This document shows, one piece after another, positions 1 to 6,006 of a stretch of 39,466 nt of DNA. Origin of the DNA: a virus (lineage: Duplodnaviria > Heunggongvirae > Uroviricota > Caudoviricetes); the IMG/VR virus record IMGVR_UViG_2531839252_000006. One strand, 5' to 3'. Within the stretch, counting starts at the first letter, position 1. Each line of letters begins with the position of its first letter. The notes below the pieces were generated by a model that did no database searches, was not told the origin of the DNA, and was given only the letters and a program-made list of their open reading frames with translations. The translations under genes were made by a program, and so were the position numbers.

Positions 1-711
1 ATGAAAATTAGAAAAGTTGTTTTAACAAAAGCAGAGAAGTATTCTGATGAAATGGGTAATGAGATCCAGTACGAAGGTAGTTGTGACGTCAAACTAATTC
101 AGTTTAGAGGATCTAATAATAAACTTATCATTCATAAAGATGCATCATTAAAATATTTTGAGATATATTTTGACTGCAACAATGGGTATTTTGAAATTGG
201 CCCATGCCATATCGCAAACAAAGGTATACAAGCCCATATAAGAGTGGGTGAGAATTCCTCCATAAAAATAGGCTCTGATTTCACTTGCACTGGTAAAGGT
301 ATGATTTCTGCTGTAGAAAACTCAAGCATAATTATTGGCGATGACTGCATGTTTTCAAGTGGAAATGAAGTTAAAACTGATGACTCCCACCCTATTTTTA
401 GTGTAGTAACAGGTGAACGTATAAATATGCCAAAATCTATTTATATTGGAAGTCATGTCTGGGTTGGCCGCCGAGCGGCAATACTTGGTGGTGCAGAAAT
501 CGAAAGTGGTAGTGTTATTGGCTATGCAGCTGTTGTTAAAGGACACGTCCCAAATAACTCTATTGCAGCAGGAGTTCCAGCAAGAGTAATAAAAAAAGAC
601 ATTGCCTGGGAAAGACCTCATCTCTCCATACATAAACCTTATGTAAAGCCTAATAAGGACTCCATAAAAACCACAAGTGAATATTGGAACCTAACAAAAG
701 AAAAACAATAA
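1..711 (+). CDS. Hexapeptide-repeat (left-handed beta-helix) O-acetyltransferase; candidate NeuO-like polysaccharide O-acetyltransferase. The ORF starts at window base 1, so the true start may lie upstream.
   Basis: Translation shows tandem hexapeptide motifs typical of the LacA/NodL/CysE acyltransferase family (IGDDCMF, IYIGSHVWVGRRAAILGGAEIESGSVIGYAAVV, AAGVPARVI). It is convergent with the tailspike gene. The region looks AT-rich by eye. Confidence 0.75.
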   Translation: MKIRKVVLTKAEKYSDEMGNEIQYEGSCDVKLIQFRGSNNKLIIHKDASLKYFEIYFDCNNGYFEIGPCHIANKGIQAHIRVGENSSIKIGSDFTCTGKGMISAVENSSIIIGDDCMFSSGNEVKTDDSHPIFSVVTGERINMPKSIYIGSHVWVGRRAAILGGAEIESGSVIGYAAVVKGHVPNNSIAAGVPARVIKKDIAWERPHLSIHKPYVKPNKDSIKTTSEYWNLTKEKQ

Positions 712-866: not shown

Positions 867-3599
867 TTAATTTGCAAGCTTATTTTCCAGTTCTTCAATC
901 CTCTTTATAATATTTTTCTGACGTATACCTAATGCAGCAATCATTAGATACTGTAATTCATCATTTCTGAATGCATAGCGTTCTCCTGCTTCATGCGTAA
1001 TAGTTATAGCCTCACGAACAAGGTTACCTTCATCATCATAAACAGCTGGATCTGTATCTGTATATGCATCCCATCTGTCATAGCAGATCGCTCCGTATTT
1101 AAATGGATCAAGTCCATTCTCTCTGAATATTTCCATTGCCCGTTGCACCGTAAGTCCGGCATGAAGTCTGGCATCAGCTCCCTTATTTTTTACACTATCA
1201 AGCCATTGATAAAAACCAATTTCATCAACAAGAGCTAACCCAACCGCCTGCTCTTTATCGGAAAGAGTTCTGACTTCCGTTTTCTCTGTTGCATCAGATG
1301 TATTTATAGTTGCAGTCCCTGCGTAGACCTGAGAAAAGCGGTTAACGGACCTTCCAAGTGATACCTGGTTATCAGTTGTTGGCCTTAATGTCGTCGTCGC
1401 CCATGTCGATGTAGTATCTTTAGTCGCAGAAAATACTGTTACATTCCCCTGCTTAAGTCTGACGACACCTCCATCTGTAGAGGCAAGTATCAACTCACCA
1501 GCCGCAGATGGACAATCAGCAGCATGGATATCAATATAAGCACCACCCGCAGTATTCCCATCTTTAGAACGGAACTGCATACCTCGAAAGTTTGAGTCGA
1601 ATACTGCTTTCGTACTTACCCATGAATTATTGTCATGTCCGTAATCTGTATCAAACAGGTTAAGGTTATTTCCATAATTCAACTCGAGGGATTTGGTATA
1701 CTCTCCAATGGCTTCGTCAAATATCGCAATAGTAAATGAACCGTGCTCACGGTTAAAGGCGATATCAGTTCCAGCATAATATTGATGCGCGGTTCCGGTA
1801 TACGGATCGGATTCTGCACCATGCACTGGATGGTTGCCAAGAATATCAGACAGGTTTGCTATTCCAAACAGATGCTTATTTCTGCGAGTATAATCACCTG
1901 ATTTATATGTTGCGCCTGAATCCCATTCACCACTTGTCGCTGCAAGCGATGTTTTTAACCAATAAGACCTGTTTGTCGGAAGATTTCCCTTGTTATCACC
2001 AGTAACAATACTTACCCAATTTTTACCACGATGGCTTACAACATCCCCTGCGCTTTTCCATACATCCATAGCACCACAGACAAGTTCATCACCTCTTATT
2101 GCCAGCCCTTCAGGCTCAAAGCTAACCGGAACTCCGATTTTAGAGTCAGAACCATTTAACTGAGTCTCTGTATAAAGTGATGCGGCAAGTGATACAGGAA
2201 ATGAACGTATTAGCGTACCACCCATATCATAAATCTGTACTGTCCTTACGCATCTTGCAGGAACGCCACCCCAAATTGTGTAAATATATCTGCTATCTGA
2301 TGTAATACCCTGAAGTGTTGCACCATACTGACCTTTACCACGGACAAGTGGAACAGGACCATTAATCGGTCTAACTTTCATTGGGTTAGAAGAAGATTCC
2401 ACTTCTTTGCGATCATATACGTATAAAAAGCGGCCAGTCCCAGCGTTTGATGTCGCAATTAATATGACATATCGCCCATCATTAGATACACAAATACTTG
2501 CCCGCTGCGCAAGGTTAATCAGATTATTATCACCCGGCTCACCAAATACTCGGTAATGAGTTATATCTTCAGCAGATGTTGATGCCCCTTTCCATTTTGT
2601 CTTTGAATACCCCTTCCCTCCTAGAGAGGAACCAGTCTCAGCAATTGTTGTTGTAAACAGATATAGTTCACCGTTCTCTATTGTGGCAGAAAGATCTGAA
2701 CCGTGACCAAGAGGCAATGGCTCTGTAAATGTCACAACATAAAGAGTTGAACCATCGCTTGTATAGTGCCACTCACTGATCCTTGTGAGGGTGTCCGTTC
2801 CCCAGTTAGAACCTCCAACCTGTTGAGTGATAAAAACCTTCTCAATACCTTCATGCCTTACACAAGCTATTCCCTGCAATGCATTTTGTGCATTCGCATA
2901 TATAGTTGGCGCATTGATATCATCACCAAAATTCAGGGTCGCAAGTTTTCTTTGTCCAATGGAGAAACTTTGCATCGGCGGATTAACAGAAATGCGAACA
3001 CCATTACTGATTAGAACACCATCACCGGAGAAGCGTGAAATATCTATTTTCGATGCATCAACTATAAACTCACCAGAAGGCACATGAACCAAACCACTAT
3101 TTCCTGCGCTAGATGCGGCGTCAAGAAAAGCCTGTGTTGAATCTCTATTCGCAGAGTCATCCGCCCCCCACCCGCGAACGTCTTTATCATCCCGCCATCG
3201 TGCAATCTGTAATTCAGGGTATTTTTTAGCACCATCAGGATCTTCTAATTGCTGCCGTAACTGATCCGGGTCATACTTCAGCACATTCGGAAAATAGAAC
3301 TGCTGCGTACCATAAGCATCGTACACAGCCATAGAGTGTCCTTTCACAGTAACGAATTTGGCAATCTGTCCGTTATATACAGGATATCCAGCAGCATTGA
3401 TAACGATTGGTTGCGAAACAGGAACGTGAGAACCTTCTTCATTCTCTACATAAACCTGAATCTGGTTTTCAGGATTTACAGGGTCAGTGTCAATTTTACC
3501 GATATAAATTTTGCCATTAGCTACGGCTTTAAAAGAACGAGCCATAGTGAAGAGTTGCGAAGGCATCCCAATTACAACATTTGGAGTTATATCAGGCAT
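867..3599 (-). CDS. Tailspike protein: P22 gp9-type head-binding N-terminal domain joined to a different receptor-binding domain and a C-terminal intramolecular-chaperone-like region; candidate endosialidase.
   Basis: N-terminal about 110 aa ([59 protein letters not shown] ... NVLKYDPDQ) match the remembered P22/Sf6/HK620 tailspike head-binding domain. Asp-box-like motifs ([16 protein letters not shown]) sit in the middle. The C-terminus ([10 protein letters not shown] ... [13 protein letters not shown]) resembles peptidase S74 chaperone domains. The long ORF extends to 3752, but the start was chosen at the ATG at 3599 with AGGA 8 nt upstream; ATG 3608 is an alternative. Confidence 0.8.
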
Positions 3600-3933
3600 A
3601 TTAGTCATCCTGTTTGAAAATTTAGATATTGAAGAAAACGGAATGACTGCAGACAAAGATGCAATTGTTTTGAAAAATAATCTTCTATTCACTTTAAAAC
3701 TATGCAACATGAACAAAACAATTATTTTACAACAAACAAGAATCTTGATCAACAGACATATGCTTTATGCGTTTAATGCGTCATTTAAAAATAACAAGTA
3801 CTACTTTTATTCCTATCGTCCATGATTTTCATTTTCAAATATTATTAAATAACAATTCCTATTTATAATATCTGTCATTTAATTTGCTCCAGATACAAGG
3901 AATCGCCGCAGCATGGCTACGGTGAATTTTGGG

Positions 3934-3962
3934 CATAAAAAAACCCAGCCGAAGCTGGGTCG
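3934..3962 (-). terminator. Rho-independent terminator downstream of ant.
   Basis: Stem acccagc / gctgggt with loop cgaa, followed on the minus strand by a T-run (plus-strand A-run 3936-3943). Confidence 0.6.
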
Positions 3963-3978: not shown

Positions 3979-4881
3979 TCAGTAGTTATGTACTGAAGGA
4001 GGCAATTCTTTATTCTTAAGTCTCATCCATGCGGAAAGATTCGTTGGTCCGTCTGGCTCATTGATATCAACATCTCGTGTGTGATTGATTAAAACGTCTC
4101 TCGCCATTCCGATAACATACGAGAATTCATGACCGTAGTCGTAGCATCTGCCGGAATAGTTCGATTGAATTTGTTTTAGCGCCGGATACAGTTCGCGGAA
4201 TAATGCCTGTGAACGGTTGGCATAATCCCATAACCATACAAGGCTGTTTGCTTCTTTTGCAGAAAGCTCGTTTGCTTTCTTCTCTTGTTTGCCAATAAAC
4301 TCGCCTTCAAGCACTACCCTGTGGATGTACTCTACTGCTTGCGGTATCTGAGATGCATCAAGCTCTTCAATACTTTCCACGTTGAAACGCTGATGAATCA
4401 TTGCATAAGCTTCTGGGTACATTAGATGCTTTTTGCTGACTAGCATATTTACAGCATCACGAAGCGGAGTCCTGTCATCAACAGATGTTTTCTTACGTGC
4501 ATTTTCTTCCTTTCCCTTCGTCCAGTAGTCATGCAGCACGCTAAAGCATTCCTCCTGGTACTGAATCAGTTTATCACGGATGTCAGCACGAACTTTCTCA
4601 GGGTTGATGCTGAACAGCCATCCATTTAACTTCTTCAAAGGAAGGCAGAGTAGCTTACGAAGCTTCCCATCAGCGGCAACCATGTCCATATGAACACAGT
4701 TGAATTTGCTAATCTGCTTCATGAGTTTTGTTTGCTGCGTTGACCAGCTCATTCCAAGGTTTTCAACGATTGGCTTCATCGCAACATATGCAACTCCGGC
4801 AGCCATGGCGGTGATAATTTGCTGACCGTTGAATGGTACGTAAGAGGTGTTCACTGCTTCTAAAATTGCTATACTATTCAT
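3979..4881 (-). CDS. ant: Antirepressor Ant (immI region), 300 aa.
   Basis: Translation from [21 protein letters not shown] gives 300 aa, the length of P22 Ant, with a GGAG 10 nt upstream. Its position downstream of arc matches P22 immI. Confidence 0.85.
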
Positions 4882-4949
4882 GTTGGTTTTTCTCCACGGA
4901 TTTACTGACAACCGAAGCCCTGACTGTTCCCGCAGTTGGGGCTTCAACT

Positions 4950-5469: not shown

Positions 5470-5889
5470 TTAGTCTTGCTTTGTTGATGGTATAAGAGAT
5501 GCGTTTGCCTCTTTTGGCTTCAAGGTATACATCCCACCATTAAAAGGATCTACAGCAAGCCAACCAATTAACCCACCAAACACAAGGTTTCCACCAATAT
5601 ACCAGCCATTAGCATTGGCTTTGATTGGCAGGGTAACTGGTTCGTACCCATCCTTTTCCATAGTGATCTGGTAGCTCTTTTTGCCAAAATAACTACCATC
5701 TGACTTGGCAAGAGTTACTCCTTGTGGGGTCTTACCTTGCGCAACAATCACGCCTGATTCGTCTTTTACCTTAAAGCTCGCACCGGAAGGATTGCTGTTC
5801 ACTTGCACAAGCTGCGTTTCGTCACCAACAATAGTTGCGCACCCAGATAACAATATAGCGCCAGCAACGACGCCAATAATCCTCTTCAT
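5470..5889 (-). CDS. Predicted lipoprotein of unknown function (moron at the P22 sieA position).
   Basis: Start chosen at MKRIIGVVAGAILLSGC: signal peptide with lipobox LSGC. Glycine-rich C-terminal segment. Lies between immI and the ejection-protein genes. Confidence 0.6.
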   Translation of the reverse strand: MKRIIGVVAGAILLSGCATIVGDETQLVQVNSNPSGASFKVKDESGVIVAQGKTPQGVTLAKSDGSYFGKKSYQITMEKDGYEPVTLPIKANANGWYIGGNLVFGGLIGWLAVDPFNGGMYTLKPKEANASLIPSTKQD

Positions 5890-6006
5890 ATCAATTTCCA
5901 TATTTAAAAAACCGGAAACATCCTAATGACAAACCATTCAAATGTGAAGTAGGCAAAAGATGTTTACTTTTTTCATGGTATCCTGCTCAAAACTAAGGAG
6001 GTTGGC

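Follow-up and report, generated by a model that had tools for sequence, protein, structure and literature searches.

A P22-like Escherichia coli prophage encodes a mosaic propeller tailspike that probably targets a rare, non-K1 capsule

The window, by which we mean the whole stretch of 39,466 nucleotides analysed (IMG/VR record IMGVR_UViG_2531839252_000006), derives from a P22-like (Lederbergvirus-type) prophage that adjoins thrS in E. coli. At positions 867-3608 (minus strand) it encodes a mosaic tailspike in which a P22/Sf6 head-binding domain is joined to a centre unrelated to P22 and to a peptidase S74 chaperone. We think it fairly likely that this protein is a capsule-targeting propeller tailspike that matures with the help of its own chaperone, uses a capsule as receptor and is partnered by an acetyltransferase encoded beside it. 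To our knowledge, there is essentially one known example of a capsule-specific temperate E. coli podovirus, CUS-3 on K1, and the window locus seems to provide another, independent one. The fold family that supplies its receptor module is otherwise linked with the recognition of teichoic acids by Gram-positive phages, and its target is itself predicted to be teichoic-acid-like.

A P22-type attachment domain fused to an unrelated body

The tailspike gene is a single open reading frame of 913 codons plus stop, as judged from the ORF list and its translation, and residues are numbered here from position 3608. Since an AGGA lies 8 nt 5' of an ATG at 3599, RefSeq gives a 2733-nt CDS with a 910-aa product (named 'phage tailspike protein') and the homologues start at the equivalent residue, the true start is probably this ATG, which yields a CDS of 867-3599 and a protein of 910 aa. 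A search of PHROGs with the tailspike returned only 'tail spike' or unknown families, and a search of NCBIfam returned no match.

Residues 4-116 (3261-3599, minus strand) form the P22/Sf6-type head-binding (tail-attachment) domain that a reading of the sequence alone had already placed at the N-terminus. Pfam PF09008 (Head_binding) matches at E 8.4e-65 (216.5 bits against a cut-off of 24), residues 1-118 of Sf6 gp14 (7sg7) align with residues 4-121 of the tailspike with few differences (E 5.6e-64), and the N-terminal domains of P22 tailspikes match at E 1e-42 to 1e-48. It is the standard domain of this kind, which plugs the spike trimer into the tail hub. It is followed by a linker and a small alpha/beta neck domain (residues 117-205; 2994-3260, minus strand), which we delimited by the end of DNA similarity, the CUS-3-type alignment, profile matches and AF2 secondary structure. 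The neck carries a conserved 20-residue junction and a degenerate pectate-lyase_3-like start motif, and profile matches to 9vvr and to the opening rungs of beta-helix proteins are confined to it.

The mosaic boundary falls near residue 150. Over nucleotides 6-446 the gene shares 86-95% identity with tailspikes in upwards of 1,100 E. coli genomes. Its similarity at the DNA level to other tailspikes of the species stops at nucleotide 446, and the remainder of the gene was found in just 5 of the 5,426 complete genomes; the CUS-3-type protein alignment to the N-terminus likewise reaches about residue 150. The tailspikes of P22, Sf6 and HK620, which are O-antigen endoglycosidases with a right-handed beta-helix and have no cleaved S74 chaperone, possess the same head-binding domain and mode of attachment but show no similarity to the window spike beyond about residues 150-200. 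Apart from a short 'GAxGDGxTD'-type motif near residues 147-190, sequence and profile searches of the PDB found nothing covering residues ~150-725, which bears out the earlier view that the remainder of the protein is unrelated to the P22 endorhamnosidase.

The receptor domain is modelled as a five-bladed propeller

The central receptor domain (residues 206-600; 1809-2993, minus strand) is modelled as a five-bladed beta-propeller, the number of blades being read from the AF2 strand pattern and from fold matches. The AF2 model of residues 131-740, built on a 96-sequence alignment, reached a pLDDT of 91 and a pTM of 0.88, while an earlier full-length model from 11 sequences (pLDDT 61 overall) was usable for residues 135-595 only. 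The sequence-only reading had anticipated a propeller, and in this the model and fold matches agree with it. It had, however, proposed a sialidase-type propeller with Asp-box-like motifs, and neither proposal survives: a regular-expression scan found no canonical S-x-D-x-G-x-T-W/F, the sole 'S.DG.T' (SKDGNT at 681) is not in the propeller, the stretches 'SDGST' (284) and 'SNDG' (375) belong to normal turns of the blades, the endosialidase Pfam domains are absent, and the model has five blades rather than six.

A comparison can be made with the CUS-3 spike, siaK1. The two proteins share the order of their parts (attachment domain, propeller, stalk, chaperone), with head-binding domains 74% identical over the first ~190 aligned residues and homologous S74 chaperones at 32% identity, but the catalytic part of siaK1 is a six-bladed GH58 sialidase propeller with Pfam domains of its own that are absent from the window spike. 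Indeed, BLASTP against a CUS-3-type spike (P0020) aligns only residues 4-193 and 741-910, and the domains PF12218 (End_N_terminal), PF12217 (End_beta_propel) and PF12195 (End_beta_barrel), all three found in P0020, are not detected in the tailspike at E <= 0.1.

The best-conserved propeller residues in the family are Q245, R276, H302, K332, Q433, E498 and E500. Across 96 homologues of 22-51% identity, E498 never varies and E500, H302, Q245 and Q433 hardly ever do (Q245 is kept in 95 and Q433 in 91 of the 96), and Q245, H302, Q433 and E498/E500 mark the starts of inner strands of blades 1, 2, 4 and 5. This Gln/His/Gln/Glu/Glu set is a candidate ligand or catalytic site, but it could instead be a structural or metal site. 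Blade 5 harbours a CBM5/12-like insertion (residues 520-572; 1893-2051, minus strand), which Pfam CBM_5_12 matches at E 1.8e-4 with 21.9 bits, under the cut-off of 26.2. Within it at least 88 of the 96 sequences retain V524, G528, P544, W550 and Y568, and two homologues (P0122 and P0135) are without this stretch (profile positions about 408-458).

On the model, the propeller shares its fold family with the wall-teichoic-acid-binding platform of Staphylococcus aureus phage phi11, Gp45, whose five-bladed propeller is the closest fold. Sequence identity to Gp45, as to its equivalents in 80alpha, P68 and NF5, is only about 11-19%. In Gp45 a coiled-coil stem and a C-terminal tower are present, and a head-binding domain, a stalk and an S74 chaperone are missing (PMC4901313); the protein belongs to the baseplate of a Gram-positive siphovirus, whereas the window spike is that of a Gram-negative podovirus. 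Alignment of the family profile to Gp45 with hhalign gave E 0.0049 at a probability of only 7%, and this statistically weak alignment pairs Q245, S304 and Q433 with Gp45 Q165, T211 and Q330, residues proposed to line a GlcNAc pocket that is itself only modelled (PMC4901313). PF21311 ('Phage 5-bladed beta propeller receptor binding platform') had no match to the window tailspike itself at E <= 1. Two family members, P0117 (26.5 bits) and P0109 (24.5 bits), exceed its cut-off of 23.7 bits and two others (P0120 and P0009) fall under it, while the family profile, compared by hhalign with a PF21311 protein, gave a probability of 97% (E 3.6e-11).

The top match in a BFVD structure search was gp12 of Bacillus phage GA-1 (E 1.1e-40). 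This neck appendage protein precursor is a true sequence homologue over propeller, stalk and chaperone (28.7% identity over residues 156-893 by tblastn, E 9e-66), but its N-terminal attachment domain is a different one, of the phi29-like collar appendage, and its host is Gram-positive. A further propeller homologue is a secreted protein encoded within E. coli polyol-phosphate capsule loci. Literature searches on PF21311 or Bcs4 yielded nothing useful.

A stalk and a predicted self-cleaving chaperone complete the spike

Residues 601-770 (1299-1808, minus strand) comprise a beta-sandwich, with AF2 strands at 625-728, and then a stalk, presumably a trimeric beta-helix; the AF2 monomer models have low confidence over residues 700-770. 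The end of the stalk matches Pfam End_tail_spike below its cut-off (residues 733-770, E 1.3e-4), and the segment before the predicted cleavage site aligns to 7y5s, 4uw8 and 3gw6.

The C-terminal intramolecular chaperone of the peptidase S74 type spans residues 771-913 (870-1298, minus strand). Pfam PF13884 (Peptidase_S74) matches residues 771-832 with 31.7 bits against a cut-off of 22, and phmmer relates the chaperone to 7y5s and to the chaperones of T5 pb1 (4uw8), EndoNF (3gw6) and GA-1 gp12 (3gud) at E 2e-35 to 9e-17. Its identity had been called correctly from the sequence, and only its extent needs revision: because it starts at Ser771, 10 residues upstream of 'TLSDKEQ', it measures 143 aa rather than ~130. 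The Ser/Lys dyad is present as Ser771 and Lys776 in the motif SDATEK (1281-1298, minus strand), in which the usual Arg of 'SDxRxK' is Thr. This motif aligns with 'SDERHK', which stands at residue 1 of the crystallised GA-1 chaperone (3gud), and with the corresponding position of the T5 pb1 (4uw8) and EndoNF (3gw6) chains, where an Ala is found. Self-cleavage is predicted from the sequence to occur at T770|S771: the chaperone would drive trimerisation of the stalk and then cut itself off between these two, so that about 767 residues would be left in the mature spike. The earlier reading had named a non-sialidase fold together with a missing S74 dyad as observations that would speak against it; we found the former, and the dyad in its place.

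The tailspike co-occurs with a rare group 2 capsule locus

Among 5,426 complete E. coli genomes the tailspike occurs in five, over 89-100% of its length at 99.1-100% identity. Exactly five genomes contain region 2 of the kps locus of one of these carriers, MS 16-3, over its full length (100% coverage) with an identity of 99.9% or more, and these are the same five. We read the kps locus in full in MS 16-3 only: it is a rare locus of group 2 (ABC-transporter-dependent), and its region 2 has four genes, encoding a TagD-like cytidylyltransferase, a TagF-like glycerophosphotransferase, a GT8 glycosyltransferase and a protein with a Capsule_synth domain. This gene content predicts a poly(glycosyl-glycerol-phosphate), that is, a teichoic-acid-like capsule. 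The kps locus and the prophage lie about 1.37 Mb apart. Since the spike is found only in strains carrying this locus, it most likely targets the rare teichoic-acid-like capsule; the receptor is thus probably a capsule other than K1, on the evidence of co-occurrence in five genomes, with the caveat that lysogens record past infection by the phage and not necessarily what the spike binds.

The pairing is replicated by a sister tailspike (799 aa in E. coli 7/2), known from the LF82 prophage Gally, vB_EcoP-683R2 and E. coli 7/2, which combines the same head-binding domain with the same propeller family, is 45% identical to the window spike over residues 4-724 (for cluster P0009 the central domain is 33-37% identical) and also sits in a P22-like prophage. 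It differs in having a short, different C-terminus in place of the S74 chaperone, a GDSL esterase as neighbour where the window spike has an acetyltransferase, and another K locus in its hosts. This 7/2-type (Gally or 683R2) spike is present in 44 genomes, at least 40 of which carry a TagD/TagF-type region 2 that is itself found in only 61 genomes, and one further carrier has a CDP-ribitol/TagF-type locus. The sister spike thus likewise pairs with polyol-phosphate K loci other than that of the window spike. A literature search for the receptor of Gally or 683R2 gave nothing useful, and the LF82 prophage paper reports none.

Nearly all characterised P22-like tailspikes target O antigen, and the neck carries the motif that begins O-antigen beta-helix spikes, so that an ordinary O-antigen tailspike in the manner of P22, Sf6 and HK620, with an incidental link to the capsule, had to be considered. 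Yet the O loci of the five carriers are O4, O7, O7, O11 and O23, four different clusters, only 1 of 36 O4 genomes has the spike, the fold is not a beta-helix, and the overlap with the K locus is perfect (5/5). We rejected O antigen as receptor after typing the carriers and finding O4 genomes generally without the spike, and regard this reading as very improbable; the capsular receptor proposed from the sequence is the one that the genomes favour. That proposal had gone on to suggest K1 polysialic acid, and a K1 endosialidase, consisting of a GH58-type propeller with a NeuO-type polysialic acid O-acetyltransferase, would agree with the CUS-3-like layout of the spike, with a neighbour 38.5% identical to NeuO and with the presence of O7, a classical K1-associated O group. 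It is contradicted by the absence of endosialidase domains and Asp-boxes and by region 2 of the MS 16-3 kps locus, which has no neu genes and holds genes for a glycerol-phosphate polymer instead, and which the other four carriers share at 99.9% identity; we give it next to no credence.

The co-occurrence might also arise without receptor use, through retention of a prophage whose acetyltransferase is of benefit to strains with this capsule, or through the sampling of a few related strains, while the spike binds some other, widespread structure. Only five genomes are involved, and all five K-locus carriers are lysogens, which could reflect selection for the acetyltransferase moron. The five carriers represent about four lineages (E4 and EC24 are near-clonal), with core genes 1.5-2.3% different between them. 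Against this reading, the strains with the spike come from no fewer than four core-genome backgrounds and have four O types, a pairing of this kind is also seen for the independent sister spike in 44 genomes, and structural relatives of the spike recognise teichoic acids, which leaves it improbable, if less so than an O-antigen receptor.

Binding or cleavage of the capsule

Taking the rare group 2 capsule rather than O antigen as receptor, the polymer would be bound in the central pocket of the propeller, lined by Q245, S304/H302, Q433 and E498/E500. As a guess, the same pocket may also cleave the polymer, probably at a phosphodiester or glycosidic bond, and so let the short-tailed virion reach the outer membrane. 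CUS-3 offers a close parallel, with a group 2 capsule as receptor and a NeuO-type acetyltransferase at the prophage end beside the spike, but with polysialic acid as substrate instead of the predicted glycerol-phosphate polymer.

Alternatively, the spike may be a capsule-binding adhesin only, which binds reversibly, as is thought for Gp45, but does not depolymerise the capsule, so that getting through it would depend on something else. The closest solved relatives, Gp45 and NF5 Gp17, are receptor-binding proteins with no enzymatic activity reported (PMC4901313 for Gp45), and Pfam and profile searches found no known catalytic motif. The conservation of E498, E500, H302, Q245 and Q433, however, fits a shared chemistry better than it fits sites for different glycans, and the secreted homologue in polyol-phosphate capsule loci may recall the polymer-trimming enzymes of other exopolysaccharide operons. 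Moreover, the spikes of short-tailed phages specific for capsules, CUS-3 among them, are depolymerising, siaK1 being recorded as an endo-alpha-sialidase. We hold a pure adhesin to be rather unlikely, though a serious contender.

More tentatively, and with no greater confidence than we place in the adhesin, we propose that the Gp45-type propeller (PF21311 and the divergent branch of the window spike) may be more than a lectin, namely an unrecognised enzyme fold that cleaves polyol-phosphate polymers (wall teichoic acids and capsules resembling them) through a Gln-His-Gln-Glu-x-Glu pocket. It would be shared by Gram-positive phage receptor-binding proteins, the capsule tailspikes of P22-like E. 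coli phages and the secreted K-locus protein, with the module swapped across the Gram divide and the prophage forming a second system of the CUS-3 kind, with a depolymerase spike and an O-acetyltransferase for a capsule other than K1. If the capsule assignment is true, a rare, untyped K locus gains a specific probe or depolymerase, one receptor-binding fold family tracks surface-polymer chemistry across the Gram divide, and phage receptor proteins of the "n-bladed propeller" class, functionally uncharacterised so far, gain a defined pocket to mutate. The genome co-occurrence test is reusable for assigning receptors to other prophage tailspikes.

A NeuO-like acetyltransferase adjoins the tailspike

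The last prophage gene before thrS (positions 1-711, plus strand) is convergent with the tailspike gene and encodes a NeuO-like hexapeptide-repeat O-acetyltransferase, of the left-handed beta-helix type. Pfam Hexapep matches with 29.4 bits against a cut-off of 27, and the NCBIfam sugar O-acetyltransferase families all score below their cut-offs. Its best homologue in an E. coli phage is NeuO, the K1 capsule O-acetyltransferase of CUS-3 (38.5% identity over residues 33-206, 74% of the length, E 3e-30). By analogy with NeuO on K1, the cytoplasmic enzyme would O-acetylate in lysogens the same capsule that the spike recognises, and such modification would alter the receptor. The functional partnership suggested by the earlier reading is plausible on these grounds, and, if true, would provide a candidate with which prophage-driven O-acetylation can be tested on a capsule other than K1. 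No phase-variation (AAGACTC-type) tandem repeats were found in or upstream of the gene, whereas CUS-3 neuO has 19 AAGACTC copies at its 5' end and is co-directional with the spike gene. The GC content of the acetyltransferase gene is 0.36, as against 0.43 for the tailspike gene.

A mosaic tailspike gene near the end of a P22-like prophage

The tailspike is encoded by a single open reading frame of 913 codons (window 867-3608, minus strand, from the ORF list and its translation), and residues are counted from nt 3608 throughout. An AGGA precedes the ATG at 3599 by 8 nt, and this ATG coincides with the start of the RefSeq 910-aa 'phage tailspike protein' and that of Sf6 gp14; the true start therefore probably lies 9 nt inside the ATG 3608 chosen in an earlier, sequence-only reading. 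A longer TTG-initiated frame reaching 3752 (minus strand) was rejected as a mechanical artefact of ORF calling. Of the possible starts, ATG 3599 offers the better ribosome-binding site and accords with RefSeq and with homologues. A sigma-70-like site is located upstream of the gene at 3752-3724 (minus strand). The tailspike gene is the last but one of the prophage, whose order from the interior outward is DNA-transfer proteins, Arc-family DNA-binding proteins, antirepressor Ant, tailspike, acyltransferase and chromosomal thrS. Directly downstream of ant (3979-4947), between it and the tailspike gene, stands a strong hairpin resembling a terminator (GACCCAGC-TTCG-GCTGGGTT, then a run of T; 3942-3961, minus strand). 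The immunity I region contains, amid its Arc/Mnt-like genes, a 143-aa ORF starting MEIDMKRIIGVVAGAILLSGC (5470-5901, minus strand) with a lipoprotein-type signal and lipobox, possibly a moron or a lipoprotein for superinfection exclusion.

Pfam assigns residues 4-116 to Head_binding (E 8.4e-65), and they differ little from the N-terminus of Sf6 gp14, in agreement with the P22/Sf6-type head-binding domain proposed earlier. At the other end, residues 771-832 score above the Pfam cut-off for Peptidase_S74, and the final 184 residues resemble the solved intramolecular chaperones 7y5s, T5 pb1 (4uw8), EndoNF (3gw6), 9vvr and GA-1 gp12, a Bacillus phage neck appendage (3gud), with E-values from 2e-35 to 9e-17. 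The proposed S74-type chaperone is thus confirmed as a domain, but its boundary moves from 'TLSDKEQ' to Ser771, 10 residues earlier. Since S771-D-A-T-E-K776 aligns with 'SDERHK', the first residues of the GA-1 crystal construct, the Ser/Lys dyad sought by chaperone alignment is present (S771/K776), and self-cleavage is predicted between T770 and S771. Only nt 6-446 of the gene resemble other E. coli tailspikes at the DNA level (86-95% identity, >1,100 genomes), the remainder being found in just five of 5,426 complete E. coli genomes. The gene is therefore a mosaic, and the chimera suspected from the sequence is borne out by its common 5' part and rare remainder.

The central domain is modelled as a five-bladed propeller

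Sequence and profile searches placed the central part in no Pfam family and turned up no relative by sequence in the PDB. A search of 1.8 billion representatives returned a family of 156 clusters at E <= 1e-30, in which N-terminal adaptors vary and some members lack the S74 tail. An AlphaFold2 model of residues 131-740, built on an alignment of 96 homologues, is confident (pLDDT 91.1, pTM 0.88); in it a small neck domain is followed by five blades of four strands each, the fifth holding an insertion, and then by a beta-sandwich. In Foldseek, bacterial glutaminyl cyclases and GH43/32/62/130 enzymes, all five-bladed folds, rank just under two phage proteins, Gp45 (the receptor-binding protein of S. 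aureus phage phi11) and NF5 Gp17; the search of the PDB with the first model gave hits in the same order. Among viral models (BFVD), GA-1 gp12 ranks top (E 1.1e-40), and it is also a sequence homologue (28.7% identity, residues 156-893, E 9e-66).

The sequence-only reading had suggested here a sialidase-type propeller with Asp-box-like motifs. The tailspike has no canonical Asp-box, the endosialidase Pfam domains of the CUS-3-type protein are absent from it, and the two proteins align only at their termini. Structure prediction upholds the propeller, with five blades, but not the sialidase type.

Among the 96 homologues, which share 22-51% identity with the window protein, conservation of polar residues is highest for Q245, R276, H302, K332, Q433, E498, which is invariant, and E500. 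The strand map of the model would place Q245, H302, Q433 and E498/E500 on or immediately ahead of the inner strands of blades 1, 2, 4 and 5, around the entrance to the central channel. Alignment of the family profile with the Gp45 sequence has little statistical weight (E 0.0049, probability 7%), yet the motifs line up: LQ245G with M164-Q165, GH302GS304 with GHGT211, LQ433G with M329-Q330, and FEPEG with QEAEG. In Gp45, Q165, T211 and Q330 have been proposed to form a GlcNAc/teichoic-acid pocket (PMC4901313). Two family members score above the cut-off for PF21311 ('Phage 5-bladed beta propeller receptor binding platform') and the window protein itself has no match to it in the Pfam scan; we therefore treat the family as a divergent branch of Gp45-type propellers, with a direct fold match and indirect Pfam membership.

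The spike co-occurs exclusively with one capsule locus

The five spike carriers among the 5,426 genomes have differing O-antigen loci: O4 in MS 16-3, O11 in TUM10008, O7 in EC24 and E4, and O23 in GMF065. Only one of 36 genomes with an O4 locus carries the spike, and an O-antigen-specific spike is accordingly poorly supported. By contrast, megablast with region 2 of the MS 16-3 group 2 capsule locus found it complete, at >=99.9% identity, in exactly five of the 5,426 genomes, the same five. The kps locus and the prophage are ~1.37 Mb apart, and the carriers are not one clone: core genes diverge by 2.3% between MS 16-3 and TUM10008 and by 1.5% between E4 and TUM10008, with E4 and EC24 alone near-identical. 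If the two features, each in 5/5,426 genomes, were independent, we calculate a chance of full overlap of ~1 in C(5426,5), roughly 3e-17, or ~4e-11 when only three independent lineages are counted. This pairing supports the capsular specificity proposed earlier.

Region 2 of MS 16-3 encodes a TagD-like cytidylyltransferase, a TagF-like Glyphos_transf protein, a Capsule_synth-domain protein and a GT8, a gene content that predicts a glycosyl-glycerol-phosphate, teichoic-acid-like polymer. Teichoic-acid-like capsules are known from E. coli K2 and other Gram-negative bacteria. A K1 endosialidase, for which CUS-3, a K1-specific P22-like prophage, would be the model, is poorly supported as well: region 2 of the spike carriers holds no neu genes, which excludes K1 for these hosts and speaks against the suggested polysialic acid target.

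SE15 and SCU-102 have 74% of region 2 at 94-96% identity, with its TagD-like, TagF-like and Capsule_synth genes; another gene replaces GT8 as the last one, and neither genome carries the window tailspike, so that the two would suit as a natural specificity control. Near sbcB, the O4 lysogen MS 16-3 also has a gtr-like O-antigen glucosylation cluster (L004:41102-43657; yfdG, yfdH and one more gene) with a degraded integrase next to it; a further serotype-converting prophage has left this remnant.

A sister spike pairs with related K loci

A 799-aa sister spike with the same head-binding domain, 45% identity over residues 4-724 and no S74 tail is found in phage vB_EcoP-683R2, LF82 prophage Gally and a prophage of E. 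coli 7/2 (L012:4004-6403). At least 40 of its 44 carriers, by comparison of lists by eye, have the 7/2-type kps region 2 (TagD-like, GT29, TagF-like, TPR protein and propeller protein), which occurs in 61 genomes; these counts overstate independence because many of the genomes are clonal. With that caveat, the pairing replicates that of the window spike in direction. The O83:K24:H31 probiotic strain A0 34/86 is among the carriers, with a 96% identical variant of the TagD/GT29/TagF-type locus. In 7/2 (L012:6523-7059), as in phage vB_EcoP-683R2, a convergent GDSL/SGNH esterase gene follows the spike in place of the window's acetyltransferase.

One carrier outside the overlap, WCHEC4533, bears a different polyol-phosphate locus (L018:38972-41715), with a TagF-like gene and a bifunctional cytidylyltransferase/SDR suggestive of CDP-ribitol synthesis. 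WCHEC4533 and 7/2 have identical flanking gsp proteins and the same 7/2-type tailspike with different kps regions 2. Either the capsule changed while the prophage was already in place, or the spike accepts either polyol-phosphate polymer.

A probably secreted propeller protein inside the K loci and the proposed action of the spike

The last gene of region 2 in 7/2 (L013:16554-17522), and likewise in WCHEC4533 (L018:43464-44423), is annotated 'phage baseplate protein'. Its 322-aa product carries a segment resembling a signal peptide at its N-terminus, scores against PF21311 with E 1.7e-15 and aligns with the tailspike family profile in hhalign (probability 97%, E 3.6e-11), sharing its Q, GH, Q and EPEG motifs. 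It is a cell-encoded and probably exported relative of a phage receptor domain, whose gene lies within the locus for synthesis of the presumed receptor, and its place in polyol-phosphate capsule loci ties the propeller type once more to that polymer class. Because trimming enzymes occur in other exopolysaccharide operons, it also hints, speculatively, at an enzymatic role for the propeller type.

Around the demonstrated domain composition, receptor-domain fold, Ser/Lys dyad and exclusive K-locus co-occurrence, we picture a trimeric spike whose S74 domain would help the stalk to fold and then remove itself, and whose three propellers would bind the teichoic-acid-like capsule through the conserved central pocket. 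Whether the pocket also cleaves the polymer is a guess at about even odds, the main rival being a spike that binds the capsule and leaves it intact.

The P22 head-binding domain, the S74 chaperone and propeller receptor proteins are all known kinds. In the searchable literature we found no E. coli tailspike placed in the Gp45/GA-1 propeller family, no link of that family to teichoic-acid-like K loci and no functional characterisation of the window spike or its Gally sister; the Gally paper is silent on the receptor. For n-bladed propellers in the receptor proteins of phages, a 2025 study notes that their properties 'remain unclear' (PMC12491483).

A NeuO-like acetyltransferase beside the spike

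The adjacent gene (window 1-711, plus strand) encodes a hexapeptide-repeat acyltransferase by its Pfam Hexapep match, with NCBIfam sugar O-acetyltransferase matches below cut-off. Among E. coli-phage proteins its nearest homologue is CUS-3 NeuO (38.5% identity along 74% of the length, E 3e-30), the K1 capsule O-acetyltransferase, whose gene also adjoins the tailspike gene at the prophage end; in CUS-3, a P22-like prophage with capsule specificity and an acetyltransferase is already known. The functional pairing of spike and acetyltransferase suggested earlier stays plausible, though not for K1, whose neu genes are absent from region 2. NeuO is soluble and its capsule substrate is assembled in the cytoplasm, whereas the Sf6 O-antigen acetylase is a membrane protein; a capsule target fits a soluble enzyme of the NeuO class, and the acetyltransferase would modify in lysogens the same capsule that the spike binds. 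All five genomes with this K locus are lysogens for the window spike, and selection for the acetyltransferase might lie behind the pattern. In contrast to neuO, the gene is convergent with the spike gene, and no heptanucleotide or tandem repeats were found at 1-711. Its GC content is ~0.36, against ~0.43 for the tailspike gene.
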